From Candidatus Giovannonibacteria bacterium (GTDB lineage: Bacteria; Patescibacteriota; Minisyncoccia; JACPKW01; UBA11713): a stretch of DNA of 64,000 nt. Location: the NCBI GenBank assembly GCA_016186825.1, contig JACPKW010000005.1:2025-66024 (forward strand), written 5' to 3'. Positions 4,988 through 37,630 of the stretch are shown here, piece after piece. Made by a program: the position numbers and the translations under genes. The stretch's first letter is position 1. Each line of letters begins with the position of its first letter. The notes beneath the pieces are model-generated. The model made no database searches and was not told the origin of the DNA. It worked only from the letters and a program-made list of their open reading frames with translations.

Positions 4988-5084
4988 TTCCGGATTATAA
5001 CATATTGAATTTTAGGGCTGACGGAATTAAATGTATGCTATATAATTTTTCCTTGAGAGAACAACACAAAACAACTTAACTCTT

Positions 5085-5840
5085 TTATTTCGTCAAATCT
5101 GCTCGGATTAAAATCTCGATTCTTGAGGGAATTGGGAGAAAAGGACTTCGCCAGGTGAAGAAAACATCTCGGTCGGATTCGCCTTCGATTCTTTCAAGAC
5201 GCGTGGTGCTTACGCCGATCGCGTTTCCGGAAGCATCGAACAAAACCGCAGATAAAAATAAATTTTCAATCGGGAATAAAGCCTGATTGGTCAAAGTTAC
5301 GTTCAGGCGCCCAAAGGGGTCATTCTCGAAGTCTCGTTTTGTTACCAAAATCTGCGGCCGTTGGCGCTCAATTTTTTTCCAGCGTTCTGGGGTTAACTGA
5401 ATTTCTGCGCGTGCGGGCGTGCGCTCAAAAGTTGGAATATCTTTTTCATAAATCAAAGTTTTCTCACCGGGATTCAAAAAAGTGCGCCCGGTTTTTTCCG
5501 CGATTAAAATTCCTTTAGCATCATAAAAAAATATTGTGTAAGACAGGAAGGAAGTTCCTAGCGTCGTATTTGGATTTTCAACCAGGCTCGCGGCTTCGTA
5601 ATGTCCGGAAGAAAGCGGGAAAAAACGCGTCCAATGCTCAACAATTTCTTTTATTTTTGACTGGCAGGGGCTGCAAAGGCCTCCGCAATCAATTTCTTCT
5701 TCATCTTGGTTTAATTTCCCGTCTTTGCATGAAGGAGCAGGCGTAAAACGATAAATCAAAGCTACAGCAATTAAAATTAATATCAAAAGAAGTGCGGAAA
5801 AAAATACGAGCTGTCTTTTTTGGCTCCAAGTAAAAAGCAT
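5085..5840 (-). CDS. hypothetical signal-anchored, secreted protein (CxxC-containing)
   Basis: The track ORF starts at 5909, but the first 23 codons overlap a terminator hairpin. The likely start is ATG 5840 (MLFTWSQKRQLVFFSALLLILILIAVAL, signal anchor). Contains CGGLCSPC. Confidence 0.5.
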   Translation of the reverse strand: MLFTWSQKRQLVFFSALLLILILIAVALIYRFTPAPSCKDGKLNQDEEEIDCGGLCSPCQSKIKEIVEHWTRFFPLSSGHYEAASLVENPNTTLGTSFLSYTIFFYDAKGILIAEKTGRTFLNPGEKTLIYEKDIPTFERTPARAEIQLTPERWKKIERQRPQILVTKRDFENDPFGRLNVTLTNQALFPIENLFLSAVLFDASGNAIGVSTTRLERIEGESDRDVFFTWRSPFLPIPSRIEILIRADLTK

Positions 5841-5855
5841 ATTTAAAGGATAACA

Positions 5856-5894
5856 GAAAAACCGCCGAACCATCGTGGATGAAAACGGCGGTTT
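5856..5894. terminator. bidirectional rho-independent terminator (end of rRNA operon transcript)
   Basis: aaaaccgccg...cggcggtttt: 8-bp GC stem flanked by A-run and T-run. Confidence 0.6.
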
Positions 5895-6200
5895 TGAATT
5901 TGTAGGCAAGGGGGTGAAGCGGGAGAGGAACTCCCGAAATTCCGCAAGATTACGAGAGCGTGCGTTGGGCTACAAACTCTCTTTTGCAAAATTCAAGAAA
6001 CAACATCCCCTTGCCAGTCGAGGTCAGATTAGCTCTGTCAAAAGTTTGAGCGACTTTGTGACAGAAAGCGAAAAAGAGAGACTGTCTCCTTTTTCCCGAC
6101 CCCGAAAACGAACAAAACGTTGAACAGCCGGCCGATAGGCAATCCATCGTATTGTGTGCAGGCAAGCTTAGCGAAGGATATGGGCCAGACTGCTTACGCG

Positions 6201-6272
6201 GCAGACTAAGAGGAGTCGAACCTCTTCTTAGGGGTATGAACCCTGTGCCACGCCACGTGGTTTAGTCTGCCT
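6201..6272 (-). tRNA. tRNA-like gene downstream of 5S, possible CAU anticodon (Met/Ile2); irregular and could be a pseudogene
   Basis: Minus strand has a 7-bp acceptor GGCAGAC/GTCTGCC, a 4-bp D-stem (CCAC/GTGG), an anticodon loop UUCAUAC and T-arm AGAGG-TTCGACT-CCTCT. The register of position 8 and the anticodon stem is imperfect. Confidence 0.4.
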
Positions 6273-6323
6273 TAAAACTCAAGATCAAATTCTCCGAACT
6301 GACGATAATTAAAATTTAAATGC

Positions 6324-6439
6324 TCTGTATCGGCGGCTGCCTACTTTCCCCTTACGAGTATCATCGGCAGTACAGCGTTTTACGACTCTGTTCGGAATGG
6401 GAAGAGGTAGTTCCACTGCCTCAAGCCACCGAAACAGAA
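6324..6439 (-). rRNA. rrf: 5S rRNA
   Basis: Minus strand reads TTCGGTGGC...CCCATTCCGAACAGAGTCGTAAAACGCTGTACTGCCGATGATACTCGTAAGGGGAAAGTAGGCAGCCGCCGA. This matches the 5S core (CCCAUNCCGAAC, GCCGAUGGUAC, AGUAGG) and terminal helix I. Confidence 0.75.
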
Positions 6440-6686
6440 AATCCAAATAAAATAATTTTCGCCAGTTCGGAGAATTTATATCTCCGAAAAAAAATAAAAG
6501 AACGACAATATTTCGATCCGATTTTCCTCCGCTCCGCCAGTTAGCGGATTGCGGAACGAATCACTCAGATCGGAGCGAGCTCGACTTATTAGTACTTCTC
6601 GGCTGAACGCCTTACGGCGCTTACACCTGAAGCCTATCAACGTGGTAATCTTCCACGAGTCTTAACGATTCCTAATCTTGGGGCAT

Positions 6687-6717
<31 letters not shown>

Positions 6718-6797
6718 ACTTAGCGACATAGCTACCCAGCGATGCTCTTGGCAGAACAGCTGGTAGACCAGAGGTCACCTCCTCCCGGTCCTCTCGT

Positions 6798-7584
6798 CAT
6801 GTTTAAACCCCTATTTCTAGGAGCATAGACTATATCTTCATCCCGCTGCATGCATGCAGAGGGAGTCGGCATCTTACCTATAGAAACCTGTCTTTTTATT
6901 TAAAAGACCTTCCAGTTTATATAAGTCTGTCGCGCATGGCGACAAGTCGTTACGGGGTCAAGCCTAAAACTTTTGATAATTCTTCGGATGTTTTCTTCGC
7001 TCGCGACTGATAATTTTCAGTCTGGATCCGAAGTAAGATATCCCGCAATTTATATTTTTGATCATTCTTTAATAAATCAAAATTTTTTCCTTGCAAGATG
7101 CGAGCTGCTTTTAAAATCTCAATTGTCTGAATTCTTTTAAACTTGATGAAAGGCAGCAATGCTTTCAGAACACGCTCGGAACCTCTATATCCATTTATGC
7201 GCAACTCTGTCATTCCATCATTGCGATTGGATAAATACCCTATTCCCAATCTTTTCTGAACCCAGAAAAGCGGTTTCGCGTGCCTCGTATCTTGATAAAA
7301 ACAAATGGTGAACATAAAGCGCCACCCTCTTTTACTATCATTACGATGTTTAATCTGAAGCATAATACTACCATCACCATCAAGAAATCCAGCAATGTAA
7401 GCAAGCTCTTCAGTTTTAAGCCGACTTCCCACGGTATTGTCTTAAAAATTTTCTGGTCCTCAAGTATATCGTACCACATCTAGGACCTTTAGAATGTGGA
7501 TATGCAACCAGAAAATTTATGAAGATTCCACCGTTATAAGCCGAATTTTCAATCCCGATTACTCGGGAAAGTAGCAATTTTTTA
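6798..7584 (-). mobile_element. group I-type intron in 23S rRNA (sarcin-ricin loop region) carrying a LAGLIDADG homing endonuclease gene
   Basis: The exon sequence ...GGGGGGTTCTCCCTAGT is interrupted, then resumes at ACGAGAGGACCGGGAGG. The insert ends in G and follows a U, as group I introns do. It contains ORF 6950-7432. Confidence 0.65.
6950..7432 (-). CDS. LAGLIDADG homing endonuclease (single-motif, I-CreI-like)
   Basis: Motif LAYIAGFLDGDGSI near the N-terminus. 160 aa. Sits inside the 23S insertion in the sense orientation. Confidence 0.8.
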   Translation of the reverse strand: MGSRLKTEELAYIAGFLDGDGSIMLQIKHRNDSKRGWRFMFTICFYQDTRHAKPLFWVQKRLGIGYLSNRNDGMTELRINGYRGSERVLKALLPFIKFKRIQTIEILKAARILQGKNFDLLKNDQKYKLRDILLRIQTENYQSRAKKTSEELSKVLGLTP

Positions 7585-7707
7585 CTAGGGAGAACCCCCC
7601 TCAAGAATCAACGCCTGCAGTAGATAGGAGACCAACCTGTCTCACGACGGTCTGAACCCAGCTCACGTACCTCTTTAATTGGCGAACAGCCAAACCCTTG
7701 GGAGCTC

Positions 7708-8449
7708 ATTTGTCGTTTTCCCGCGTTACTGCGGGTATCAGACTATGCCATCACCATATTTCAATTGTCGCCAATTGAAACTTAGGTGCGAACCGTATTA
7801 TAGATTTTTTAATCTATCTCGCGATGCTCCAAAAAGCATCGCTCAGTCGTTAGAGGAGATATGTTCTTAGATCATTGCCGCAAAATTTTTCCGTCGATTT
7901 TTGGATCGGACGTTAAATTTCGACAATGTATCTGCCAATCGTGCTACGCGCCTCAGATCTCGAAATTCCCTGATGGGAGTTTCTATAATCTTCTGCGCAA
8001 AATCTATTTGCTGTTGTTTCATTCTGGAATAAGGACGAACATAAGAAAGAACTCGCAAGATTTCTTTTTGATCTCTTGTAATCCAATCACATGTTGTCCG
8101 ATTCGTTCGAATTTTTCCACAACCGAGAATCTCGGTCATGCACAAAAGATCTTTTCTGTGCTTTTGCGTTACTTTCAATTCAATACGAACTCGAAAACGA
8201 AACTTTTTCTCATTATGAGGTTCGATGATCGCCATAATGGCGCCATCGCCGTCAATGAGACCAGCAATATATGCACAATCGACTTCAGAACATCTCTTTC
8301 CTACGGCGTTAACCTTCATGAGTATATTATACCTGGGACCTGCAAACTTTGCATATCCCAAGCGTATATTTATGAATAGGCCTTCACCGTTTTGGGCTCG
8401 TTTAATTACTCTGACGTTTCCATCAGAGAGAGAAGTTATGTTTTCTCCA
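7708..8449 (-). mobile_element. second group I-type intron in 23S rRNA (about E. coli position 2500) with a LAGLIDADG homing endonuclease gene
   Basis: The exon CGATGTCGGCTCATCTCATCCTGGGG is interrupted and resumes near ...GAGCTCCCAAGGGTTTGGCTGTTCGCC. The insert contains ORF 7867-8361. Confidence 0.65.
7867..8361 (-). CDS. LAGLIDADG homing endonuclease
   Basis: Motif CAYIAGLIDGDGAIM. 164 aa. Sense orientation inside the 23S intron. Confidence 0.8.
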   Translation of the reverse strand: MGYAKFAGPRYNILMKVNAVGKRCSEVDCAYIAGLIDGDGAIMAIIEPHNEKKFRFRVRIELKVTQKHRKDLLCMTEILGCGKIRTNRTTCDWITRDQKEILRVLSYVRPYSRMKQQQIDFAQKIIETPIREFRDLRRVARLADTLSKFNVRSKNRRKNFAAMI

Positions 8450-10020
8450 CCCCCAGGATGAGATGAGCCGACATCGAGGTGCCGAACTCCGCCGTCGCTG
8501 TGGACGCTCGGGCGGAACTAGCCTGTTATCCCCGGAGTAGCTTTTATCCGTTAATCTTTGGCGCCATCTACTGGCCACCGTCGGTTCACTAGATTCTGCT
8601 TTCGCACCTGCTCGACCTGTCCGTCTCGCAGTTAAGCCGGCTTATCCTCTTACAGGTCCAGCGCGATTTCCATCCGCGCTAAGCCGACCTTAATAAACTC
8701 CTCCGTTACTTTTTAGGAGGATTGCGCCCCACACAAACTGCCCACCAGACACTGTTCCCATCCAGTTTCCCCGCGCTTTTTTCAATTTTCTAAAAAAAGC
8801 GCGGGGTTCTGGATAGGTTAGGACATAAGTCGCCGAAGATGGGTATTTCACTGTTGGCTCCGTCCCGCCCAAAAGCGGGACATCAAAGCCTCCCCACTAT
8901 GCTACGCATCGAAAACTTAAACCCAATATCAAGTTGCAGTAAAGCTTCCGGGGTCTTTTCGTCTAACTGCAGGTAGCCGGCATCTTCACCGGCATCGCAT
9001 TTTCACCGGGCTGCTCCCCGAGACAGTCCCCCAGTCGTTACGCCTTTCGTGCGCGTCGGAACTTACCCGACAAGGAATTGCGCTACCTTAGGACCATTAT
9101 AGTTATGGCCGACATTGACGAGGGCTTCGGACGCTCAGCTGCTCCGCTTACGCTACACAACTTCGCGAATTTACAATTTACAATTTCTAATTTCCAAACA
9201 ATTTTTGAAAATTGAAAATTAATAATTGAAAATTCGGTTGCGAAGCAAAAGCGAAGCAACCGGCTTCGTTAACCTTCTCGCATTGGTCAGGCGTCACCCC
9301 CTATACATCCTCTTACGAGTTCGCAGGGAGCTGTGTTTTTGATAAACAGTCGCCAGGGGTACTTTCGTTGCAGCCGACGCTCCGCATTAGAATTTCCAAT
9401 TTCTAATTCTTCAATTTTCATTGAGTTTCCAATGAATTAATTTCCAAACGTTTGGAAATTGAAAATTGTTACTTGAAAATTCCGATGCGAAGCATCGGCA
9501 GGTCTTATCCCTAAGTTACGACCGCTTTTTTGCCGAGTTCCTTGGGGAGCACTCACTCGTTCGCCTTGGGCTACTCGCCCCACCCACCTGTGTCGGTTTA
9601 CGGTACGGTTTCCTTCAATTAACCTAGAAGTTTTTCTTGGAAGTACGTTTGCGAAGATTTCTCAATCCGAAGAAAAAGATTTTTAAATCGCCTGGAGATG
9701 CCTTGCGGCGCCGGGCGGATTTGCCTGCCCGTCTCCTCGCGACTCAAACACGAATCCAATAACGTGCCTTCGCTACGGCACTCCGTCACTCCATCGAATG
9801 AAGGAAGTCACGGAATATTAACCGTGTGTCCATCACCTGCGGCTTTCGCCATCGGCTTAGGACCGACTAACCCTTGGCTGATAATCATTGCCAAGGAAAC
9901 CTTGGGTTTACGGCGCAGCGGTATTTCACCGCTGTTGTGGTTACTTGTGCCAACATTCTCACTTCTCTGGCGTCCATCCCGGCTCACGCCGTGGACTTCA
10001 CTCGCCAAAGAACGCTCTCC

Positions 10021-10621
10021 TACCAATTAGTGCTTGAATTTTGGAGGGGAATCTCACGACTCCCCTTACATCCTTTCGTTATTTTTTCTTTTTATTGTCT
10101 TTTACGCTGGATTGCGTAGTGAATGAACAGCGCAAGCTTATCAGCACATTCGTATATAACTCTATCGATTTCCCATTCATCCTTGGACGACAATTTTTTA
10201 ATGCCCCGGTTTTTCAACTCTTCGCGAACATCCATGGTCAGCTTGGTATGAATTCCAAGCCGCATTCCATCCAGATTTGGTTTTTCCAACACCATGACCG
10301 TTCTCCTTTCGTTATTTTTTCTTTCCGTTTCTCTTCTCTTGATGCAAGACCAACGTCGCAGTTCGCAAGAATTCACGAGTTAAGCATGGTCTATTCCACC
10401 CATCATCCATCCATGCCCATGTGATTATCTCTGTATGTGCGGAGTGAACGAACCATCTGCGCTTGTACTTTAGCGCGATGCCTTTCAGCATACATCGATC
10501 TTCTTTTGAAAGCCGTCATCATTCGAATATTCCGAGCGATGCGTAATCACGAGAACTTTCGATTCCATTTTCACCTCCAATGAACTAAAAATTTTTTTTC
10601 CAAAATTCAAGCACTAATTCC
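10021..10621 (-). other. intervening sequence (IVS) in 23S helix 45, closed by a perfect 20-bp inverted repeat
   Basis: aattagtgcttgaattttgg (10021-10040) pairs with ccaaaattcaagcactaatt (10602-10621). The 561-nt insert replaces the helix-45 tetraloop between GTACCGAAGGTGAGG and GGTAGGAGAGCGTTC, which is E. coli 23S ~1164-1185, the classic RNase III-processed IVS site. Confidence 0.6.
10092..10376 (-). CDS. IVS-encoded small basic protein (94 aa), candidate 23S-IVS protein
   Basis: Sense-strand ORF entirely inside the helix-45 IVS: MNSCELRRWSCIKRRETERKNNERRTVMVLEK... Function unknown. Confidence 0.35.
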   Translation of the reverse strand: MNSCELRRWSCIKRRETERKNNERRTVMVLEKPNLDGMRLGIHTKLTMDVREELKNRGIKKLSSKDEWEIDRVIYECADKLALFIHYAIQRKRQ

Positions 10622-11496
10622 TCACCTTCGGTACTCTATTTAACCCCGATCATCTGCGGCGCAAGGTCTCTTAGCGAGTGAGCTGTTACGCACTCTTTAA
10701 AGGATGGCTGCTTCTAAGCCAACCTCCTCGATGTTTCAGAAACCTCACCACCTCGCTTGTACTTAATAGAGATTTTGGGACCTTAGATTGAGATTTGGGC
10801 TGTTTCCCTTTCGACCGACGGAGCTTAGCCCCCGTAGTCTGACTACCTGAGTAAACCCGCTGGCATTCGGAGTTTGATTGGTCGTCCGAGATTTCTCCCT
10901 GTGACGACCATCCAGTGCTCTACCTCCAGCGGTTATCTCAAGCGCTAGCCCTAAAGCTATTTCGGAGAGAACCAGCTATTACCAAGTTCGATTAGCTTTT
11001 CACTCCTACCCCCAACTCATCCGATGGCGTTGTACGACCAAACGGTTCGGGCCTCCAGCCGTCTTTCGACGACCTTCGCCCTGGCCAGGGGTAGCTCACC
11101 TGGCTTCGGGTCTATTATTTAATGCATTTAAATCTTAGTTCCGTCCCAATTTTCGAACGGAACTAAAATCTAGTTCGCCCTTTCAGACTCGGTTTCCCTG
11201 CGCGTACGGGCACAAAAGCCCTTACACAAGCAATAAACAATAACTCGTTGGCTCATTCTTCAATAGGCACACCATCACCGCGCACAGCGCGGAAGCACCA
11301 AATAACAAGCACCAAGCTCCAAATAATTTTAAATAACCAATTTTCAATTCTCAAAAAAAATTTGAAACTTGAATTTTGGAATTTGGAATTTATTTGTAAT
11401 TTGGATTTTGGAATTTGGAATTTCCGTGCTATGCACGGCTCTGATTCCTTGTAAGCATATGGTTTCAGGTACTATTTCACCGCCCTCACCGGGCTG

Positions 11497-11534
<38 letters not shown>

Positions 11535-12848
11535 ACTTCGAAAGTATTTAGCCTTAGGAGTGTAGTTCTCCTTGCTTCCTCCGAACCATTCTTTGTTCGA
11601 AGTACTCAAGAAAATCACCGCCACTATATATAAATATACAGGTGCAGGACCCCGCTTTTCAGCAGGGTATCAAGGAGCATAAATCTGTTTTCGCCTACAG
11701 GGCTATTACCTTCTTTGGCGAAGCTTTCCAGCTTTCTTCAGCTAACGAGATTTATTTAATCGGCTCCTTTCCGGCGCTATCCCGCAAACCTCCTGAAATT
11801 CAGAAAGAATGCGGGATGCTCCAGAACGATACAATCTTTCAACCCCAAGCACGTAATCCTTGCGGACTATGTGCTTGGTTTGGGCTTCTCCCTTTTCGCT
11901 CGCCGCTACTAAGGGAATGTTCACATCTCGCTAACGCTCGCTTCAATTATCAATATGCAATTTCTAATTTTCAAAAAATAAATTAATTGAAAATTATTGA
12001 AAATTGCAAAATTGGAAATTAAAAATTTCGAACGTTAGTGAGATATGGTTGTTTTCTTTTCCTCCGGGTACTGAGATGTTTCACTTCCCCGGGTGCGCTC
12101 CGCGCTCTGCACGGAATTTTCAATTTTCAGTTCTCAATTCACAATAAATTTTCAGTGAATTAATTTTCAAACGTTCGAAAATAGGAAATTGATAATTGAA
12201 AATTCCGTGCAAAGCACGGTCTCCGTGGTTTGCACGGAGGGGTTTCCCCATTCGGACATCGTCGGATCAAAGGTTGCTCAACACCTCCCCGACGCTTATC
12301 GCAGTTACGCCACGTCCTTCATCGCCTTTCGAAACCTAGGCATCCACCATACGCCCTTATTTGCCCGCTCCGATCTGAAAGATCCGCCAGAACTTACTTG
12401 GCGAAATCAGATCGAAATATTGTGTCCCGATTCGCAAGTGCTCTTTTTGCGAATCGAGAATCTCCCGATTTTGTTTACAAAATCGGGACTCTTTTTTATT
12501 TAGTTATTTTGCGATTGTTGCCCCATCAGAATGTTGTGTTCCGATGGAGCTACCTGTTTCAATTTTTAAGCTGCATTCACCTACCCGCTTAATTTTGCAC
12601 CTGCAAATTTTGGCGGGTTAGCTACCGGCGTTTGGATTCGCTATTTCACTCATCCAAGCGTCGAGAGCCAATTTCTAACTTTTTATCTAACTTTTTTAAA
12701 CCTCGCCGGGCCTGCCTGCCGGCTGCAGGGACGGGTTCATTAATTAAAAAATCCGCCGTGAAGCGGATTACACATCAAGACTAGGCGTGATTTCATCCGC
12801 TTCTAAAGTTAAGTTTTAATAAAACAAACACCATAAATTGTGCTTTTC

Positions 12849-24719: not shown

Positions 24720-24929
24720 TTAAGACGAAATGTTTGAATGAGGCGTCCTGAAACCAATGAAAGCGATGACTAAAGTCGTAATCATCGCAATCAATAAAAT
24801 ATTTTCAACCGAAATGTCATCTCGCGACCAAATCGCGATGGCCGAACCGAGCCATACTCCAATGATTGCAATCGAGACCCAGGGGTATTTCATGAATTTA
24901 TTCGAATGATTCCATAATACCAGAGACAC
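24720..24929 (-). CDS. hypothetical small membrane protein
   Basis: 69 aa, two hydrophobic helices. Weak call. Confidence 0.25.
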   Translation of the reverse strand: MSLVLWNHSNKFMKYPWVSIAIIGVWLGSAIAIWSRDDISVENILLIAMITTLVIAFIGFRTPHSNISS

Positions 24930-26400: not shown

Positions 26401-26660
26401 TGCATTAGGAAATCCTTGGCGTGCGAAAACCTAAAATAGACAAAACTATCGTTCCGAAAGCTGCGATCGAAAAAACGTATTCGGGGCTAGAACGAGGCTT
26501 TAGGGCAACAATCCAGGCTGATAACAGCCAGATTGAGCAAATTGCAATTGAGATCCAAATATATCTCATATAATCATTATACCAAAAAAAATAGAAAAAA
26601 TCAAGGAGGCGAGGTTGCAGACATGCTGGAGTTGAGACGTTCTAGCTTATCTATTCTGAT

Positions 26661-27422
26661 TCAGGGGTGAGGAATTTCTTTTAAAAACTTGTCAGTTAAA
26701 GCAGAGTTGTAAGCATAGTTTTTCCCGTCCCACACGTACACAGCGCCTTCCCAAGACCACCTTCCCTCTATATCGGTGTAGCCGTCTAAATCAAGAATCA
26801 CTTTTTTTCCCGCTTCTTCCATTACTCGAAAAACTTCAGCGTTTCTGACTGAAGCCCCGTCTTGAAAAACTGCTGGTCGCATTGAGCCGTTTTTTTCTTT
26901 CAGCGTTACCCAATTTATTTTTCCGCTTGCGAAAGAAAGAATTCCAAACGTACCGGTATAAGCTCCGTAACTTTTCAGGTCAATTATGATCTCCCTTTCT
27001 CCGTCCGAGTTTAAATCCTGCAAATCGCTTACCTCCGGGGTTTCCTCGGATGTAAAATCATACTCTGCGGCTGAAACAGAAAAATCGAAAATTTCGGAGA
27101 GGCCTTTCGTGCGGTCCCTAGCATCAGCCAAAACCGCGTAAGGTTTTTTTGCGGCAAAACTCGTCAGAAAAATTTCATTATGCCCGTCGCCGTTGATATC
27201 GAGTTCTTTTTCTTTCAAATTATCCTTTGGAAATTTCGCGAGGGAATATTCGGAAGGCTGCTCGATCGTTTGATTCTTTTTTTCTGCAGGAGAGCTGAAG
27301 TAGTTTTTTATCTTGGCAAAATATCCGGAAAGTTCGGCGCGATAAGCAAACGCAACCAATCCTAAAAGAATTAAGATGATGAGCCATAAAACCGCATTCG
27401 ATTTTCGCCGTCTCCATGGCAT
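26661..27422 (-). CDS. hypothetical signal-anchored protein with DINGDGHNE (Ca-binding-like) motif
   Basis: N-terminal TM anchor. 253 aa. No confident family. Confidence 0.45.
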   Translation of the reverse strand: MPWRRRKSNAVLWLIILILLGLVAFAYRAELSGYFAKIKNYFSSPAEKKNQTIEQPSEYSLAKFPKDNLKEKELDINGDGHNEIFLTSFAAKKPYAVLADARDRTKGLSEIFDFSVSAAEYDFTSEETPEVSDLQDLNSDGEREIIIDLKSYGAYTGTFGILSFASGKINWVTLKEKNGSMRPAVFQDGASVRNAEVFRVMEEAGKKVILDLDGYTDIEGRWSWEGAVYVWDGKNYAYNSALTDKFLKEIPHP

Positions 27423-27468
27423 GTTTTTATATTATAACATCAACTCTGCTATTTATTTTCAACTTAAT

Positions 27469-27497
27469 TTGACATTGGTTTTCTATCCGCATAGCTT
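27469..27497 (+). promoter_or_regulatory. candidate promoter for the RT-associated ncRNA
   Basis: TTGACA-17 nt-TAGCTT. The -10 element is weak. Confidence 0.3.
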
Positions 27498-27499
27498 AG

Positions 27500-27815
27500 T
27501 ATTAGCAGGACCTTTTGAGGGCGTCATGCCTCCTAAGGCAGCCCGCGATGGAGCTTCCTCGTCGGGTGTTGGTTAGGCTTTCATGTTTGCGGAGCTCCCG
27601 TGGATGTTGACTCTTTTTTCGGCGGTTTTTTCGAACCGGGGAGATTCCCCCCGCCCCGCTTGAAGAGTTCGTTTTTGCGGCGTCTCTGCTTACGTCGGCC
27701 TTTGAAGTCGCTGTTAGGGACTTCCCCTCCCAAAGAAACCCTCAATTATGACGTTCAAGTAGTTCATGCCTGCTAAAAGAGACGCGCGAGAATACTTCTC
27801 GCGCGTCTCGAAACT
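27500..27815 (+). ncRNA. GC-rich structured non-coding RNA immediately upstream of the reverse transcriptase (retron msr-msd-like or DRT-type template RNA candidate)
   Basis: No credible ORF. GC-rich in an AT-rich genome. Many local hairpins, including a perfect 13-bp stem gagacgcgcgaga/tctcgcgcgtctc 10 nt before the RT RBS. 8-bp direct repeats tcatgcct lie exactly 240 nt apart. Confidence 0.45.
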
Positions 27816-29081
27816 TTGAACATTAAAAAACTTAGAAAGGAGGATACAAACTTGCAGCAGCCATCTTTAGGAATACAAAGTTTGGTCGAGAAAACCCTTG
27901 GGAAACTGGCGCTGGAAGAAACAGCGCGGCTGATTGGTGTCGATGTGAGCGATTTGGTAAAAGCCCTTGAAATCGCGAAAAGCAGTGACGGATATCGCCA
28001 CAAGAAGATTCTTAAAAAACGCGGGAAAGGATATCGTCGCATAGATGTGCCGCACAAGGATCTCAAGTGGGTTCAGCGCGCCTGCCACATCAACCTTTTA
28101 CTGCGCCATTTCAAGCCAACGCCAATCTGCCATTCATTCGTAGGACGGCGCTTTGAAAAGGATTCACTCCACTGGATATTTGGGCGAAGCGTAATTTCAG
28201 GAGCGTGGGCGCATTTAGGAGTTCCGCCCGACGAAGAGCCGGACCCAAAGAGCAACTCAATTAATTGGAGGAAGCCGCGATCCCAACTTGCGATAGATTT
28301 CAAAGACGCTTTTCCAAGCGTTTCGCGGACAAGGATTAAAGAAATCTTGCAGAAATTACTCGAGCAAACAGGGAAATATCAAGCTGGGGCCGATATCATT
28401 GCTGAAATCCTGGTTGACCTTACAACTTGGAACGGCGTCTTACCTCAAGGAGCGCCGACCTCGCCTGTTCTTTTCAATCTCGCCTGCAGAGATCTAGATG
28501 AAATTCTCATCGGCGAATTTTCAGATGAAGAACAAAAGAGCAGAATCAAGATCACTCGGTTCTGCGACGATATCTCGGTTACGCGGCTCTCAAAAAAAAT
28601 CGGGTTAAAGACTAGGGGAAAGATCGAGCGGCTGATTCATAAGAACGGATTCCAGATCAACGAAGAAAAAACCGTGCACTGGCAGGATTCCCATCATGTT
28701 TTGCGGATCAATAGCATTAATCTTGATCCGATTAATCGGCGCGTTTTTCTTCCCCGCGAAACTATCGAGCGCTTCAGGTACCTGCTTTACAGATCGTGGC
28801 AGGAACTTGAAGAAAGTTTCTCATGGTGGCTCGTGCTCGGAAGAGACTCGGATAATACAATCAAGTATTTTCTAAATCAGGCGGCATACGGTAGAATCGC
28901 CGGAATTGTCGGCTATTGCCGAATGATTTATAAAGAAGACTCCGAGATGCCGCTTAGACTCTTTAGTTGGAATCCCGATTTAAGCGGCTATTGGGATCAG
29001 GAACGCTTTGAGCAGATTTTCGCGGATATCAGTAAAGGGTCGCTTATTCAGGATCTTGAAGATCATCTGCACTATTTCTAA
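27816..29081 (+). CDS. stand-alone reverse transcriptase (retron or defence-associated RT-like; not DGR-type)
   Basis: RT motifs 0-7 are present: KKRGKGYRRIDVPHKDLKWVQRA (motif 0/1), IDFKDAFPSV (2), LPQGAPTSPVLFNL (QGxxxSP, 4), RFCDDISV (YxDD, 5), FQINEEKT (6). Start could be ATG 27816 or TTG 27852, which lies after the AGGAGG RBS. Confidence 0.8.
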   Translation: MNIKKLRKEDTNLQQPSLGIQSLVEKTLGKLALEETARLIGVDVSDLVKALEIAKSSDGYRHKKILKKRGKGYRRIDVPHKDLKWVQRACHINLLLRHFKPTPICHSFVGRRFEKDSLHWIFGRSVISGAWAHLGVPPDEEPDPKSNSINWRKPRSQLAIDFKDAFPSVSRTRIKEILQKLLEQTGKYQAGADIIAEILVDLTTWNGVLPQGAPTSPVLFNLACRDLDEILIGEFSDEEQKSRIKITRFCDDISVTRLSKKIGLKTRGKIERLIHKNGFQINEEKTVHWQDSHHVLRINSINLDPINRRVFLPRETIERFRYLLYRSWQELEESFSWWLVLGRDSDNTIKYFLNQAAYGRIAGIVGYCRMIYKEDSEMPLRLFSWNPDLSGYWDQERFEQIFADISKGSLIQDLEDHLHYF

Positions 29082-29082
29082 A

Positions 29083-29135
29083 CCGCCGACTCGGAACTTA
29101 TCGCACTTTGCGAACCGAATCGGCGGCTTTTTTTA
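29083..29135 (+). terminator. rho-independent terminator after the RT gene
   Basis: ccgccgactcgg...ccgaatcggcgg stem followed by T7. Confidence 0.6.
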
Positions 29136-29235
29136 TGAAAACTGACTTTAGCGCGTTTAAGTTGTATTATTTATAAGTCAAAACTCTTGAAGTTCTGTTG
29201 AGGATTTCAAACGTTATTAAATTAATCAAAAAAAT

Positions 29236-29829
29236 ATGTTCAAAGTTGATTCCCCTTTCCCGAGTTTTTCGCTTGAGATTTATAACGCCGAGAAAGGCAA
29301 ACAAGAAAAAATTTCGAACGAGACTTTTAATAGCAAATGGCTCATTCTTTTTTTCTATCCGGGCGATTTTACTTTTGTCTGCCCTACCGAGCTCGTTGAT
29401 ATGAACGCGCGCATCAATGAATTCAAAAAATCGGGCGCGGAAGTCATAGGAATTTCCACGGATTCCGTTTATTCGCATAAGGCCTGGATTGAGGCGGAAG
29501 AACAGCTTAAAGAATTAAAATATTCGCTTGCTTCAGACCACAATGGAAATATGTCACGCGCGCTTGATATTTATGAAGAAACCGACGGAACAGCCCAGCG
29601 CGCCTGCTTTATTATTGATCCTGACGGAATGCTTCGCGCGGCCGACATTGTTTCCGATCCAATTGGGCGCTCCGCGGGAGAAATTTTACGAAAATTGAAA
29701 GCGTTGAAATTTGTTCGCGAAAATCCTGGAAAAGTCTGCCCCGCTTCCTGGGACGAAGGTTTGCCTGTCATAACAAAATCCATGGAACTCTCCGGAAAAG
29801 TTTTGGACGAGCTTGAGAAAAATAAATAA
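29236..29829 (+). CDS. 2-Cys peroxiredoxin (AhpC/TSA family)
   Basis: FFYPGDFTFVCPTEL peroxidatic-Cys motif. Confidence 0.85.
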   Translation: MFKVDSPFPSFSLEIYNAEKGKQEKISNETFNSKWLILFFYPGDFTFVCPTELVDMNARINEFKKSGAEVIGISTDSVYSHKAWIEAEEQLKELKYSLASDHNGNMSRALDIYEETDGTAQRACFIIDPDGMLRAADIVSDPIGRSAGEILRKLKALKFVRENPGKVCPASWDEGLPVITKSMELSGKVLDELEKNK

Positions 29830-32890: not shown

Positions 32891-34258
32891 TTATTTATTA
32901 CCTTTCTCAATTAACTCTTCGACCTTATGTTTGGCTTCTACGAGAAGTTCTTTTGCTTTTTTACGGGCTTCGTGAGATTGGCGCACTAAATCAGCAATTT
33001 TTTGTTGAACCGGTTTTGGTAAAATTGGAATATAAAAACTTTTAACTTGTGTATCAGAAATTTTAGGTTGTGCAGTTTGGCTCATTTCTTTTTCAAATTG
33101 CAATTTGCCAACAATTGATTGCAAAACAAGTGTTAAATATTCTGATATTAAAAAGTTTCTATCTTTAATAGAGAACATCGCAGTATTATTCGATATAAAA
33201 GCATCATTGAATTCATCACTAATGTTGGTAAGAGTGCCCACACTGCCAATAGACGCAAATATGATATCTCCGGTTTTAATCCTCGTTTCATTCTTAGGTT
33301 GAAAATTTTTGATATAAACAAGCTTAGATCTTTCGAGTCGTCCTGATGAAAAGTCTCCACCTCGTATATAAGGTGTTCCATTTTCATCGTCATAAAATCT
33401 TGGATTGATCAAAGAACCACGTTTAACTGATGCAATTTCGGAAAGTTTTTTAACATCTGATTTTTTTCTTATTTGGTTTAGCATTTGTTCATATTTCGGT
33501 TGAAAATACTCCGCATCCATTCGGTTTGCAGATTTGATTTCAGAAAAGTTAACAACGCTCCACAATTTTTCTTCGTTCTCAAAGTCTTTTAATCCCAATT
33601 CTTCCAAAAGTAATGTTTCCGCCTGGGAATATATAAATTTAGACTTCTCGAATTCATGCCATGACCAATTAGATAAATCACGAATCTTTTCTTGTGTCGT
33701 TATAGGCAAAACGGAAATTCTCATCAGCTTTAGTTCTTCTGCATTCACATTTGCTTGATTAACCGCCCGCCGAGTATATTTTCTGATCTGCCTTAACCCG
33801 TAAGAAGAATTTAGAAAAATGTTTAAATAGTCCGCTAAAATTTCTCCGCCTGATTTTACTCTTAAGCGTATTAAATAAGAAGCAAAAACTGATTTTAAAC
33901 TATCCAATTTATAAATACCGGTTCTACCTACAAATTCTTCCGAATTCACTCGATTAAAAAAGACGTCGTCTTTTTTAATCGCAAATTGGTTAAAAATTGA
34001 TTTTGGAATATCAGCAAAGCGGATATCGTCATTAAAAAGAAAACCATAATCAATATTATCCATTTTGAAAATTGGATAACCTTTTTTCTCGTCATTCATG
34101 GCTTGCGAAAGTCCATATTGGCATAACTCTAAAACTTCGCCAATAGGCACCCAATTTCCTTTTGTAAAATCAATAAAATACTCCCGCTGATAATATTCCG
34201 CATCCAGCCGATGCGCGCCCTCAAGTTGAGATTTTTGGATGACGGAAAAAACTGCCAT
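32891..34258 (-). CDS. restriction-modification specificity (S/B) subunit with two target-recognition domains
   Basis: HsdS-like two-TRD organisation with coiled-coil ends. Likely start MAVFSVIQKS at 34258, one nt after the upstream stop. The track ORF extends to 34321. Confidence 0.7.
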   Translation of the reverse strand: MAVFSVIQKSQLEGAHRLDAEYYQREYFIDFTKGNWVPIGEVLELCQYGLSQAMNDEKKGYPIFKMDNIDYGFLFNDDIRFADIPKSIFNQFAIKKDDVFFNRVNSEEFVGRTGIYKLDSLKSVFASYLIRLRVKSGGEILADYLNIFLNSSYGLRQIRKYTRRAVNQANVNAEELKLMRISVLPITTQEKIRDLSNWSWHEFEKSKFIYSQAETLLLEELGLKDFENEEKLWSVVNFSEIKSANRMDAEYFQPKYEQMLNQIRKKSDVKKLSEIASVKRGSLINPRFYDDENGTPYIRGGDFSSGRLERSKLVYIKNFQPKNETRIKTGDIIFASIGSVGTLTNISDEFNDAFISNNTAMFSIKDRNFLISEYLTLVLQSIVGKLQFEKEMSQTAQPKISDTQVKSFYIPILPKPVQQKIADLVRQSHEARKKAKELLVEAKHKVEELIEKGNK

Positions 34259-34259
34259 A

Positions 34260-34889
34260 TTATTCTCTAGTTTCAAAGTATTTAAAAGTCTCCGCCATCT
34301 CTTTTTTAATGTATGATCCAAAGCTGTCGATCCTGAAGTTAAATCCTTCCATAGTTTTACGAGTTTTTATACGCTGCATTTCAAATTTAATTTGACATAA
34401 AAATTCAAGTAGAAAATCCCGCAGGCGTTTTTCGCTAATGCGCGCTTCTGTGAATTTCTTCTCAAACTCCTCGGAAACGAAATAGCCCGTTTCTCCCCTG
34501 TGTCCAACAATAACGTGACGCCACTCTGATATAAGATCAAAATCTTTTTTTATAGTTACAAATTTTTCTTCAAGCCAAATTAAAAGATTGGGGTGAGTTA
34601 AATTTTGAGCGACATCCCACACATTAAAAACGCTATATTTTCGATCAAATAATTTGAATAATTGCAAGACAACAAAATTCTCAAGCGCCACGTGTGAAAA
34701 AGAAATTACAGAATTTCCGAAACCTGTTTTTATACCTCTGTCGTGTCTAAATTTCCACATTGCATCAGCTATAATGCGCGCATGAATTACTTGTTCGACC
34801 AATTCAGAAAAACGAGAATATAATTTTTCTTGATCACGAAATATTTCGTTTTTTCTTTGTTTTACCTCTTCTTTAATTTGAGTATTCAT
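34260..34889 (-). CDS. hypothetical protein embedded between the RM A and S subunits; possible HEPN-like (RxxxxxH) protein
   Basis: 209 aa. Contains RHVIVGH (Rx5H). Translationally coupled to the S subunit. Confidence 0.4.
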   Translation of the reverse strand: MNTQIKEEVKQRKNEIFRDQEKLYSRFSELVEQVIHARIIADAMWKFRHDRGIKTGFGNSVISFSHVALENFVVLQLFKLFDRKYSVFNVWDVAQNLTHPNLLIWLEEKFVTIKKDFDLISEWRHVIVGHRGETGYFVSEEFEKKFTEARISEKRLRDFLLEFLCQIKFEMQRIKTRKTMEGFNFRIDSFGSYIKKEMAETFKYFETRE

Positions 34890-35042
34890 ACGGTTTAAAT
34901 ATTATTTATTTTCATCAGGCCAAAAAGATTTTGCCCAATATCTAACGTTGCTGAAATCTACAAAAACAAAAATGTTTCCATACTTTTCGGGATTAAATAG
35001 ATAATAGTTTCTTCTAAAGTCGTCTAAGCCATCCATAATCTG

Positions 35043-37013
35043 TCAGAAATTAAATTTCCGCTCGTTTGCAAATTTCTTAAATCCGTCCGCAATTTCATCC
35101 AAATCGTGGTCTAAAACTTTTCGGCCTTTTGGGTCATGAACATAATTTCCATTCGCGTCTTTTTTGTAAATGTAATCCCCGGAGTTGTCTTTGCCGCCCT
35201 TTTTAGAAACTGCCATAAAAATTGGATAATCTTTTTGCGGCTCGTTGCCATTACCCCATTTCTGTAAAAATAAAACTGATGTTTTAGTTCCGGTATGAGG
35301 CTTGAAAGTATTTCCGTGCAACCCGACGACCGCTAAAATGCGCGCTTTATCAAATAGATATGCGCGCACGTTTTCCATATTGGTATTATTCAAAACACCT
35401 TGCGGTAAAACTATTGCCATTCGACCGCCCGGGCGAATCAAATCAAGCGCGCGTTCGATAAAAAGAATATGCCGCTCAATTTTATTTACAAGTTTATTTT
35501 TCTTTTTTGCTAAATTGTATTGGCGCATAAGCCCTGAATCCTTTATTTCTCCCGCAAAAGGCGGATTCGTTAGTAATACATCAAAATTCATATAATGAAA
35601 TGTTTTTCGGTTTTCTGAATTATCAGTGCCGCTTTTTAAATCCAGAAGTCGTGTTTGGAGTTTTGAGCGCGCATCGAGCATTTGGGAATCTTCGCCCTGC
35701 CATTCGCGCGGATCGAGAGAATTTAATTTAAACATGTGCGATCTGCCATCGCCCGCGATTAACATTAGAGCTCGAGACACTTTTGAAATTTCTTCAGCAA
35801 AATCAATTCCCCAAATATATTCTTTGGCATACTCCTGCATAGCTTCGTCTGTTCCATTTAAGTGATTATCTTTTACCCAATACATGGTGTTTATCAAAAA
35901 ACCTCCCGAGCCTGCCGCTGGATCAATTACATATTCGTCTTCTTTTGGATCGAGCATTTTTACAGCCATATTTATTACATGGCGCGGAGTAAAATACTGC
36001 CCCTTTTTCCCTTTTGCTACCTCGGGAATGAGATATTCAAAAGCTTCATCGATTATAGAAAGATCGGACCCAAAAAGACGCGCCTTTTCCAATTCACCAA
36101 CTACAATCGAAAGGTGCTCCGCTGAAAGATTTATATTTTCTTGTTCGTAAAACGTTCCAGGCCATCTTTTTATGGCTTTTTTAAAAAGATCGTTAATTGT
36201 TGAATAGGTTTTAGATGGATCGCGATATTTGCGGAAAAAAACTTCTTTATCAGCTCGATGCAATTTTGCTTCTTGTTCATCGTATAATTTCGCGTAAATT
36301 AATTTAAAAACTTCTGTAAAAACATCAACGCCAGCATTTGCAAGCACAAGCTCCTCCATCGATTCGATTACGTCTTTAAGATTTACTTTTGTTGTCGTGT
36401 ACTCAAAATAGGTTTTCTTCGCTTCGAGCAGATCATCAATTGTTTGGCCTTCCGCGGGGATTTCCGGCAAGGTATCATCAAATTCTTTAGGATATGGCCT
36501 GTACAATATTGTTTTTTTAAAGCCATTCGACCAGACGCCGATTTCAGAACCTTCAGAATTTAGATAACTTTTGAGCTGATCGATTCCTTTTTCTTCGGTG
36601 GGACTTTTTACTTCGACGATTATATAAGGTGTTATGCCGTCTTTTTTAAAAACAACAATATCTGCGGCTTTTGCATGAATTTCTCGACCGAAATGAATAC
36701 TCCTCTCCGTTTCCATTCGTTCAAAAGGATAACCGTAATGCTTATTCAACTTATAGAGCCAAAGCTGGCGCACAATTTCCTCGGGCTTCGATGTTTCTTT
36801 TTTAGCATCGAAAATAAAACGCGACTTGCCTGTTTTCAAATCTTTTAGAGAATAACGGTCTTTTTCTTCTTCCGTGATCTGCAGAATATCGTTAATGTCG
36901 ATATTCTCAAATTCTTTCAGACCAAAAGCTATATCAGAATTTTTAAAAATTTTTCCAATTATTTCTTCCGTTCGAGTTGGTTTCTTTGTTGGCATTATTT
37001 TACTGGTTTCCAA
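35043..37013 (-). CDS. BcgI-like Type IIB RM subunit A: N-terminal PD-(D/E)XK (HsdR_N-type) nuclease fused to gamma-class N6-adenine DNA methyltransferase
   Basis: N-terminal ADIVVFKKDGITPYIIVEVKSP (D...EVK nuclease motif). MTase motif I VIDPAAGSGGFL and motif IV NPPFAG. 656 aa. No separate HsdR nearby. Confidence 0.65.
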   Translation of the reverse strand: METSKIMPTKKPTRTEEIIGKIFKNSDIAFGLKEFENIDINDILQITEEEKDRYSLKDLKTGKSRFIFDAKKETSKPEEIVRQLWLYKLNKHYGYPFERMETERSIHFGREIHAKAADIVVFKKDGITPYIIVEVKSPTEEKGIDQLKSYLNSEGSEIGVWSNGFKKTILYRPYPKEFDDTLPEIPAEGQTIDDLLEAKKTYFEYTTTKVNLKDVIESMEELVLANAGVDVFTEVFKLIYAKLYDEQEAKLHRADKEVFFRKYRDPSKTYSTINDLFKKAIKRWPGTFYEQENINLSAEHLSIVVGELEKARLFGSDLSIIDEAFEYLIPEVAKGKKGQYFTPRHVINMAVKMLDPKEDEYVIDPAAGSGGFLINTMYWVKDNHLNGTDEAMQEYAKEYIWGIDFAEEISKVSRALMLIAGDGRSHMFKLNSLDPREWQGEDSQMLDARSKLQTRLLDLKSGTDNSENRKTFHYMNFDVLLTNPPFAGEIKDSGLMRQYNLAKKKNKLVNKIERHILFIERALDLIRPGGRMAIVLPQGVLNNTNMENVRAYLFDKARILAVVGLHGNTFKPHTGTKTSVLFLQKWGNGNEPQKDYPIFMAVSKKGGKDNSGDYIYKKDANGNYVHDPKGRKVLDHDLDEIADGFKKFANERKFNF

Positions 37014-37630
37014 TAGCCGTTTTTAAAAACAGACACTACTTTTCCTTTTAATTCGACCTCATCTGTAAATGGGATAATATCGTACTTTGGATTTTCTGGT
37101 TTTAGATAAACATATGGAGGCGTATCTTCGGACATAAACCTCTTTATTGTGCTACTATCTCCAATTTGCGCATAAACAATTTCGTTATTAACAAATTCTT
37201 TTTTTGTCTGGACTAAAACAGCATCGCCGTCATCAATTCCGGCATTTATCATGGAATCTCCTGAAATTTTTAGAATGAAAATTTCCTCATTTAGTTTGGA
37301 AACATTTTCTGATAAAGTCTGCCATTCGCCCGAGAGCTCGATCGAATGAATGGGGGTTCCTGCGCTTGAATATCCAACAAAGGGGACTAGAGGAGGCGCC
37401 CCAAGAACATCATAAGCCAGAGGTAAAAGGGCAATGCTACGCGCCCCTTCGTTTCTTCTTATGTATTTGCCAGATTTTAGTTTTTCAAGAAGGTCAATTA
37501 TAGACTGATTAGAGGAAACACCAATATTTTCACGCATTTCTTCAAATGTGGGAGCATATCCAGAGGATTGAATATAGTTATAAATTATCTCCAAAAGCTG
37601 TTTTTGCCTTGCAGTTATGGCTTTTTTCAT
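36995..37630 (-). CDS. LexA-like repressor (HTH + S24 peptidase)
   Basis: N-terminal HTH. LKISGDSMINAGIDDGDAVLV S24 Ser/Lys dyad region. Overlaps the start of the RM A gene by 19 nt. Confidence 0.75.
   Translation of the reverse strand: MKKAITARQKQLLEIIYNYIQSSGYAPTFEEMRENIGVSSNQSIIDLLEKLKSGKYIRRNEGARSIALLPLAYDVLGAPPLVPFVGYSSAGTPIHSIELSGEWQTLSENVSKLNEEIFILKISGDSMINAGIDDGDAVLVQTKKEFVNNEIVYAQIGDSSTIKRFMSEDTPPYVYLKPENPKYDIIPFTDEVELKGKVVSVFKNGYWKPVK

Follow-up and report, generated by a model that had tools for sequence, protein, structure and literature searches.

In a 64,000-nucleotide stretch of DNA from Candidatus Giovannonibacteria bacterium (GenBank assembly GCA_016186825.1, contig JACPKW010000005.1, forward strand; here called the window), a stand-alone reverse transcriptase (RT) gene is preceded on the same strand by a structured non-coding RNA (ncRNA) region whose two ends are complementary. 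From sequence comparison and structure analysis, this unit is on balance probably a two-component, effector-less, retron-like retroelement that would copy part of its RNA into complementary DNA (cDNA). We read it in this way because its RT falls in the retron clade, because its RNA is encoded in cis, co-evolves with the RT and is paired at its ends, and because of what is established for retrons (PMC8632793, PMC7736814). The family to which the unit belongs is, judged from its sequences, best described as a new, very small lineage of retron-like RT–ncRNA elements that lack an effector and are associated with the Candidate Phyla Radiation (CPR). RTs in the CPR have been reported mostly as those of diversity-generating retroelements (DGRs; PMC8632793). 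In the literature searched there was no description of retrons in the CPR, Patescibacteria or Parcubacteria, and UG38, of the UG/Abi radiation, was the sole CPR-specific RT group mentioned (PMC9226505).

The reverse transcriptase and its relatives

The RT open reading frame (ORF) is intact and spans 27816-29081 (+), encoding 421 amino acids from a TTG codon. The preferred start is a second TTG at 27852, which lies 8 nt 3' of the ribosome-binding site AAGGAGG (27837-27843) and gives a protein of 409 amino acids (27852-29081). Gene callers report the 409-residue form (P0001), and GenBank entry MBI2610075.1, from a Candidatus Giovannonibacteria metagenome bin, is the 421-residue form. Pfam recognizes RVT_1 only (9e-17), and neither Pfam nor the AlphaFold model reveals an effector, maturase (X), endonuclease or nuclease domain. 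An earlier inspection of the letters without database searches (the sequence-only reading) had described a 421-residue RT with a full motif set and no maturase or endonuclease domain; all of the motifs that it quoted are present, and its account stands apart from the better start codon.

In PADLOC, the 25 best matches of the RT are all retron RT models, led by RT-TIR_XII (127.6 bits) and followed by types XI, II-A, I-C, III-A and XIII. The three best NCBIfam models are likewise from retrons, with retron St85 at 107 bits (cut-off 235); among non-retron models, the group II RT/maturase TIGR04416 reaches 36.7 bits (cut-off 300) and the Drt2 model NF041746 25.4 bits (cut-off 390). A profile of 18 family members, searched against PDB sequences, matched the retron RTs Ec86 (9e-35), Ec67 (4e-29) and Kva2 (3.5e-25) ahead of the group II RT GsI-IIC (9e-14) and DRT9 (7e-6); DRT2 was absent from these matches at E <= 0.001. 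An AlphaFold (AF2) model built on the family alignment (predicted local distance difference test (pLDDT) 84, predicted template-modelling score (pTM) 0.81) has a predicted two-helix N-terminal extension, fingers, palm and thumb, and a disordered C-terminal tail. In a Foldseek search of this model against the PDB, the 16 best hits are all retron RTs, after which come a group II RT, DRT9 (rank 24), a DGR RT (rank 25), G2L4 and DRT2 (9c0i, rank 28). By sequence profiles and predicted fold, the protein thus groups with the retron RTs and not with the group II intron, DGR or DRT2 RTs. The sequence-only reading, which had left the family to be settled by profile searches, had called the element retron- or DRT-like; the first half of that description is now much the better supported, and the profile scores and Foldseek ranks speak against a DRT2-like RT.

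Within the retron RTs, no single type stands out. The matches of the 18 family members to types II-A, XI, III-A, XII and XIII are of similar strength, their best E-values lying around 1e-45, and ordinary retron RTs included for comparison as outgroups reach 260-390 bits with these models. The family is therefore a divergent lineage that lies within the retron radiation or next to it, outside its defined types. Two insertions are specific to the family: one within motif 2a (ICHSF ... GRSIVSNAxAH) and a conserved one ahead of motif 3 (LGVPPD ... WRxPRS). The retron hallmark NAxxH is found in 13 of the 18 members (GAxxH in four, AAxxH in one) and [VI]TG in 15, while the catalytic aspartates, namely the Asp of motif 3 and the xDD of motif 5, are invariant. 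The RT of the window carries QGAPTSP. The nearest outgroup proteins, P0069 and P0007 (717-719 amino acids), contain two tandem retron-type RT domains each, at residues ~34-342 and ~390-697 according to PADLOC models. Many family C-termini are low-confidence, partly acidic tails that end in GY, GYRxx or GYNQF, and in the window the tail (residues 393-409) ends in HLHYF; that such tails dock a partner protein or supply a priming tyrosine is pure speculation.

The family is small. A word-indexed search of 5.8 billion proteins returned six close relatives of the RT at 38-43% identity, and an exhaustive hidden Markov model search of 1.84 billion cluster representatives (50% clustering) gave 17 clusters above 300 bits, with the next scores falling to 223, 191 and 175. 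All members are stand-alone proteins of 346-477 amino acids, and all 18 ORFs are intact at 33-53% identity. The named hosts are Candidatus Giovannonibacteria (two) and Candidatus Sungbacteria, all Parcubacteria; the remaining members come from metagenome assemblies, some of them from aquifers or groundwater. IMG/VR holds no family member, and a phage origin of the unit was rejected on that ground. A genome-collection scan with the full family alignment was of no use, because the generic LPQGAPTSP motif dominated its hits, all of which were retron RTs of 24-35% identity.

The RNA upstream of the reverse transcriptase

Between the divergent gene upstream (26661-27422, -) and the RT start lie 430 nt, ~330 nt of which are GC-rich and non-coding. 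The region 27423-27851 contains no credible ORF, as the short ORFs listed there have stops in every frame in homologous loci. Its GC content at 27500-27799 is 0.51-0.565, against 0.36 at 27300-27499 and 0.35-0.36 at 29100-29399, and it is strongly A-poor. The sequence 27495-27815 folds at -129.5 kcal/mol (z = -4.9), a value that none of 100 shuffled sequences equalled. The ORF-less, GC-rich and hairpin-dense leader noted in the sequence-only reading is therefore real.

Upstream sequence was available for nine loci (the window, L001, L003, L004, L005, L091, L093, L098 and L099), which share one layout: a promoter, the motif (G/A)CAGG, the motif CCTG(C/U), a strong hairpin with a U-run, AAGGAGG and the RT start. 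The putative sigma-70-type promoter of the window (+), read from the sequence, consists of TTGACA at 27470-27475 and TAGCTT at 27493-27498 with a 17-nt spacer. Seven loci (the window, L001, L003, L004, L093, L098 and L099) have TTGACx or TTGCAA, 17 nt and TAnnTT at the corresponding place, 7-19 nt 5' of the (G/A)CAGG core, and L005 fits less well. The sigma-70-like promoter of the sequence-only reading thus gains from its conserved position, but it fails a generic consensus scan, which missed it because of its weak -10 box. From this promoter, the predicted transcript start would lie a few nt 5' of the first pairing arm.

The ends of the RNA are joined by an inverted repeat like the a1/a2 repeat of retrons. 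In the window, the a1-like 5' arm TTAGCAGG (27502-27509, +) is an 8-nt perfect inverted repeat of the a2-like 3' arm CCTGCTAA (27769-27776, +). The a1 core (G/A)CAGG is kept in all nine loci, with CCTG(C/U) 200-306 nt 3' of it; the exception, L091, has an insertion and a distance of 537 nt. Core-to-core spacings are 264 (window cores at 27505 and 27769), 267, 282, 297, 537, 306 and 306, all multiples of three, with 211 and 217 as the exceptions; for seven out of nine, a post hoc binomial test gives p ~0.01-0.02, and there is no conserved ORF that would account for the pattern. In L091 (Candidatus Sungbacteria, GCA_016196165.1), the ncRNA region at 5393-6295 contains a 17-bp perfect hairpin between two direct repeats of ~26 nt, which looks like a small insertion.

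Beyond the core, the a1/a2 helix extends by 2-5 further pairs, and these differ between loci: TTA/TAA in the window, TC/GA in L001, CC/GG in L003 and L004, and AA..C/G..TT in L005. Within the core itself, a G-C pair is switched to A-U in L098 and L099. Global MAFFT alignments of the upstream regions misaligned these anchors, and we therefore relied on anchored mini-constructs and on folding helix by helix. In an ungapped construct of the two arms, 79.8% of cells are standard pairs, as opposed to 31-48% after a shift of the partner by 1-3 columns, and 7 of 11 pairs change on both sides, counts that are somewhat inflated by the way in which a2 was chosen (see below). The covariation score of the construct is 0.369, against 0.189 +/- 0.044 for shuffles, of which 0 of 500 reached it. 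The minimum free energy (MFE) fold is closed by the a1/a2 stem in every locus, in L093 through the second of its three CCTGC sites.

A second shared element follows a2. Eight of the nine loci (all except L091) have a hairpin there, 3-8 nt after a2 in most and ~23 nt after it in L093, with folding energies of -22 to -35 kcal/mol (z = -3.9 to -6.3) and followed by (A/U)(A/U)C and a U-run; the hairpin sequences are unrelated between distant loci. In the window this is a perfect 14-bp GC-rich hairpin (27779-27792 pairing with 27796-27809; -26.4 kcal/mol, z = -6.3) followed by GAAACUUUGAAC, a terminator- or attenuator-like element at 27779-27820 (+) between the ncRNA and the RT ORF. The sequence-only reading had placed a perfect 13-bp stem 10 nt before the ribosome-binding site; the stem has 14 bp and ends 27 nt before it. 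In the homologous loci inspected, the RT start is likewise closely preceded by the AAGGAGG that the window has at 27837-27843 (+). Just 3' of the hairpin, the 12 nt at 27812-27823 (AACTTTGAACAT) match the complement of the opening 12 nt of the downstream AhpC ORF (29236-29247) without a mismatch. Antisense pairing between the two was considered and is probably chance, as the match shrinks to 6 nt in L001 and 7 nt in L099, and L098 has only an AT-rich 10-mer.

Between the arms, the 259-nt ncRNA body of the window (27510-27768, +) is GC-rich and A-poor and, by inverted repeats and folding, rich in hairpins. It includes an inner long-range helix (TTGAGGG at 27515-27521 with CCCTCAA at 27739-27745, +) and a long imperfect hairpin at 27576-27700 (+; -49.2 kcal/mol, z = -1.9). 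Seven loci share an internal hairpin of 9-10 bp, hairpin C, with the consensus CCUUGCGG-AUAU-CCGCAAGG followed by (G)UUUGCUnACGCCGGC. It was assessed from folds of the individual sequences, since on alignment A7 differences in loop length shift the partners out of register. A covariance model of hairpin C plus UGCUnACGCCGGC, run against ~0.85 Mb comprising 80 unrelated retron loci, found nothing significant (best E = 0.21). The window is the most divergent member. A covariance model built without it has its best ncRNA match at 27682-27705 (10.3 bits), which includes the family motif TGCTTACGTCGGCC (27687-27700, +); a manual placement of hairpin C at 27583-27607 was rejected, as the same leave-one-out model did not recover it. 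In sum, the modelled ncRNA fold is backed for the a1/a2 stem and the flanking elements, and its interior is a prediction.

The region between the arms does not appear to encode a protein. A Neo-like or other coding reading was rejected because stops occur in all six frames between a1 and a2 in the window, L098 and L099, and such open frames as exist in the other loci are inconsistent in strand and frame. Rfam searches at relaxed thresholds with the window and four homologous loci gave nothing relevant, including among group II intron, riboswitch and leader models.

Comparison of L098 with L099 bears on selection. Their RT genes are 93%, 94% and 76% identical at codon positions 1, 2 and 3 and 70% identical at four-fold degenerate sites; on these sequence data the RT is under purifying selection. 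Their ncRNAs are 80% identical overall, with identity reaching 100% in the first 40 nt and 82% in the 80 nt that follow. This pattern indicates constraint on both the RT and the 5' part of the ncRNA. Compensatory substitutions occur in stems of the variable part and of both terminators, among them an A-U to G-C change in the hairpin equivalent to the RT terminator. In the window, that RT terminator, which the sequence-only reading had also recognized, lies at 29083-29134 (+) and has a stem at 29083-29126 and a U-run (-23.1 kcal/mol, z = -4.9). With its own putative promoter and two terminators, the unit is self-contained.

Proposed mechanism, known systems and rival explanations

We infer transcription, attenuation at the hairpin, RNA binding by the RT, cDNA synthesis, the mode of priming and the biological role of the unit, and propose the following course of events. 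An ncRNA of ~280 nt would be made from the unit's own promoter, and a1 (27502-27509) would pair with a2 (27769-27776), ~260 nt downstream, to close a multi-hairpin fold. The majority of transcripts would probably end at the hairpin 27779-27809 (27779-27820), leaving the ncRNA in excess, and read-through past it would yield a smaller amount of RT mRNA. The terminator-like hairpin between ncRNA and RT thus suggests a built-in setting of the RNA:RT ratio. The RT would then bind its cognate RNA and use a portion as template for a small cDNA, in the way that retron RTs use msr-msd, and the resulting RT–RNA–cDNA complex would be the functional entity. Most plausibly, this complex would act as a phage sensor or defence module, with an effector that is encoded elsewhere or dispensable; alternatively, it may have been domesticated.

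The likenesses to retrons are several. Both sequence and predicted fold place the RT in the retron clade, with NAxxH and VTG in most members; the ncRNA lies directly upstream on the same strand, its ends joined by an a1/a2-type inverted repeat; the length of RNA between the arms (200-306 nt) is comparable to that of large retrons; and the unit is apparently inherited with its host lineage, as are type XIII/myxobacterial retrons (PMC7736814). Retrons are currently understood as three-part toxin–antitoxin-like defence systems (PMC7736814). 'Orphan' retrons without an effector are acknowledged, their role being an open question (PMC7736814), and in the figures of Mestre 2020 (PMC7736814), as cited in PMC8632793, they make up ~25% of the catalogue, as against ~75% with an effector. 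With about a quarter of catalogued retrons lacking one, an effector is typical of retrons rather than strictly defining.

Several observations weigh against a retron-like assignment or limit it. As regards exact type, the RT of the window reaches no curated retron cut-off, lies about equally far from types II-A, III-A, XI, XII and XIII, and has insertions (ICHSF...GRS and LGVPPD...WRxPRS) that set it apart from retron RTs; at hallmark positions it has GAWAH for NAxxH, INS for VTG and FCDD for Y(A/V)DD. In the RNA, the nine-locus comparison found no invariant unpaired branching G after a1, and canonical priming from a branching 2'-OH is not evident because the invariant GG of CAGG is paired inside the helix and is followed by covarying pairs. 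Interior MFE folds comprise several hairpins whose shapes differ between loci, with no single conserved long msd stem. The internal RNA homology of the window is weak, the match at 27682-27705 having E = 0.006 within the 421-nt region and 1.2 window-wide. Where several CCTGC sites were available (L003, L004 and L093), a2 was picked by complementarity and by position before the hairpin, which favours pairing. A terminator-like hairpin between ncRNA and RT falls outside the usual description of retrons. Finally, unlike ~75% of retrons, the unit has no effector gene or fused effector domain, and it sits among housekeeping genes of CPR Parcubacteria (the named hosts) rather than in a defence island or prophage.

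Other published RT systems resemble the unit in part. Retron RT lineages without a fused effector keep NAxxH and VTG, and type XI models are among the best PADLOC matches of the unit, whose type XI score is nonetheless no better than that for several other types. Such lineages have stand-alone accessory proteins at most two genes from the RT, whereas the unit has none that is conserved; the two of them described in detail have Bacillota and Bacteroidota members. UG38 is a small class 2 group of UG/Abi RTs reported only from CPR genomes (PMC9226505); like the RT of the unit, it is rare, stands alone and has no added domains, and it occurs in metagenome bins of Parcubacteria and other CPR bacteria. 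UG38 is, however, defined inside UG/Abi, whereas the present family scores as retron-type; this retron affinity argues against their identity.

Among rival explanations, the nearest is a self-contained defence in the manner of DRT2 or DRT9, in which the RNA would be copied without branching, by rolling circle or template jumping across the a1/a2 junction, and the cDNA or a gene that it creates would itself be the effector. DRT2 (UG2) is a defence system of one RT gene and an ncRNA ahead of it, and it makes concatemeric cDNA encoding Neo. The unit shares with it one RT gene, a structured ncRNA some hundreds of nt long in front of that gene, the lack of a protein effector or conserved partner gene, and a stem that joins the two ends of the putative template; the elusive branching G, the a1–a2 spacing in multiples of three (subject to its post hoc test) and the scarcity of stop codons on both ncRNA strands would also suit such a scheme. 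Yet the RT lies outside the UG/Abi clade and far closer to retrons, as the Drt2 score and the Foldseek ranks of DRT9 and DRT2 behind 16 retron RTs attest; the frames between the arms are closed in three loci, with no conserved stop-free frame through the RNA, and the low stop count follows from its A-poor composition. We regard this explanation as unlikely. Still less probable is that the upstream RNA serves solely as a cis-regulatory leader, an attenuator or protein-binding element, with the RT acting on other templates. The order of promoter, long-range-stem domain, terminator-like hairpin with U-run, ribosome-binding site and gene is indeed the classic layout of an attenuating leader or riboswitch, but this RNA is found only with this RT family and co-diverges with it, and adjacent ncRNAs are templates or scaffolds in retron and DRT systems (PMC8632793). 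Moreover, no conserved antiterminator pairing with a2 was found, the 8-nt complementarity of 27680-27687 with 27778-27785 has no clear counterpart elsewhere, and the Rfam search returned no riboswitch or leader.

We consider it very improbable that the unit represents a retron in decay, no longer functional and bereft of its effector. The missing effector, the substitutions in NAxxH, VTG and the Tyr of YxDD in the window, and the loss of the element in one related genome (L100, below) would fit decay; against this stand 18 intact ORFs at 33-53% identity with invariant catalytic aspartates, strong purifying selection on the RT, compensatory changes in ncRNA and terminator, and persistence of the complete unit, promoter and terminator included, in genomes that share only ~40% identity in the neighbouring hypothetical protein. 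A group II intron fragment or a DGR RT, both of which the sequence-only reading had already argued against, can practically be set aside: the similarity to either is that of RTs in general (TIGR04416 far below its cut-off, a DGR RT at Foldseek rank 25) and is far exceeded by that to retron RTs, there is neither a maturase, X or endonuclease domain nor an Rfam group II intron match, and no repeats resembling the template and variable repeats of DGRs occur within 27380-29260, which covers the unit and its immediate flanks.

The retron-like reading thus remains the one we favour. A more far-reaching version of it, which we put forward tentatively and hold with clearly less conviction, is that the family is an unclassified retron lineage, effectively a new type, that has long been kept at fixed sites on the chromosomes of ultra-small CPR bacteria, with the RT–ncRNA–cDNA complex itself as the end product, a role outside defence or in effector-free immunity, and a possibly non-canonical mode of priming. 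The possibility of an undescribed RT–ncRNA family, raised in the sequence-only reading, is reinforced in that no curated family cut-off is passed and the upstream RNA is conserved in all relatives with upstream sequence. Either way, the family offers a clean natural case of effector-less retrons: a minimal RT and ncRNA in streamlined genomes, at syntenic housekeeping sites and with an empty-site comparator. If cDNA is made, the system could reveal what an RT complex with multicopy single-stranded DNA does without a dedicated toxin, would extend retron biology to the CPR (Parcubacteria), and could provide a compact, divergent RT–ncRNA pair for retron-based tools of DNA production.

Genomic setting and other features of the window

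In the window, the genes upstream of the unit encode an HhH-GPD glycosylase, TruB, an ABC1 kinase and a 253-residue hypothetical protein (all -), and those downstream AhpC (+), an RRM protein (-), a GT2 glycosyltransferase and a PMT glycosyltransferase. The sequence-only reading had placed the unit between divergent housekeeping genes; this applies to the upstream side, where the hypothetical gene is divergent, but not to AhpC, which is co-directional. AhpC is also the same-strand downstream neighbour in L001, L097/L098 and L099, while a SufS-like cysteine desulfurase and the rest of a suf operon lie downstream in L091/L092, L093 and L094. Elsewhere, the downstream neighbour is L21 (L003), UvrA (L004), NusA (L005) or LeuRS (L095), and RmuC is also found among the neighbours. 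As these are housekeeping genes that differ between loci, no conserved effector gene accompanies the RT across the loci examined, in keeping with the absence of an adjacent effector first noted by eye.

The same site occurs without the unit. In L100 (GCA_023266875.1), the gene order is PMT, GT2, a 159-residue hypothetical, RRM, AhpC and the hypothetical gene that neighbours the RT in the window, with the RT absent; at the empty site (4922-5000), divergent AhpC and the conserved hypothetical gene are 79 nt apart. In L102, too, no RT lies beside the copy of that hypothetical gene. The 1.7-kb unit is therefore accessory. No transposon-like ends, target-site duplications or direct or inverted repeats were found flanking it. 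Within the AhpC group, pairwise RT identities (45, 42, 42, 43, 42 and 87%) run alongside those of the adjacent fast-evolving hypothetical protein (45, 40, 40, 39, 41 and 88%), a sequence pattern that fits long co-inheritance of the unit at this site with loss in some lineages. The SufS group is less regular: L093 and L094 are 85% identical in RT and 78% in SufS, and L091 and L093 44% in RT and 73% in SufS, such that some exchange or re-insertion of the unit is possible there. Downstream of the unit in L091 (10341-15507), the suf operon is interrupted by two genes, the last of which encodes an AbiEii-domain protein, and SufB contains two inteins.

Elsewhere in the window, a type I restriction-modification cluster (32891-37630, -) lies 3.8 kb downstream of the RT, with four housekeeping genes in between. 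It includes an HsdS specificity subunit (32891-34321) and a 656-residue protein with HSDR_N and an N6_Mtase/Eco57I-type methylase (35043-37013); L100 instead has an aminotransferase beyond PMT. Small hydrophobic ORFs at 26405-26569 (54 amino acids) and 24720-24929 (69 amino acids), both on the minus strand, adjoin the ABC1 kinase and TruB genes. As L001 has called ORFs of 54 and 57 amino acids at the corresponding positions, the 54- and 69-residue ORFs may be real small membrane proteins.

At 6200-12356 (-), the window has an rRNA region in which the 23S gene is interrupted. The segment 8998-12356 corresponds to positions 15-2044 of the Rfam large-subunit (LSU) model in 3359 nt, an excess of ~1.3 kb, and 8531-8952 to model positions 2090-2472, with the last ~450 model positions unreported; a 5S rRNA (6328-6433) and a tRNA-Met (6200-6269) follow. 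This arrangement suggests insertions or introns in the 23S gene, a common feature of rRNA genes in CPR bacteria.

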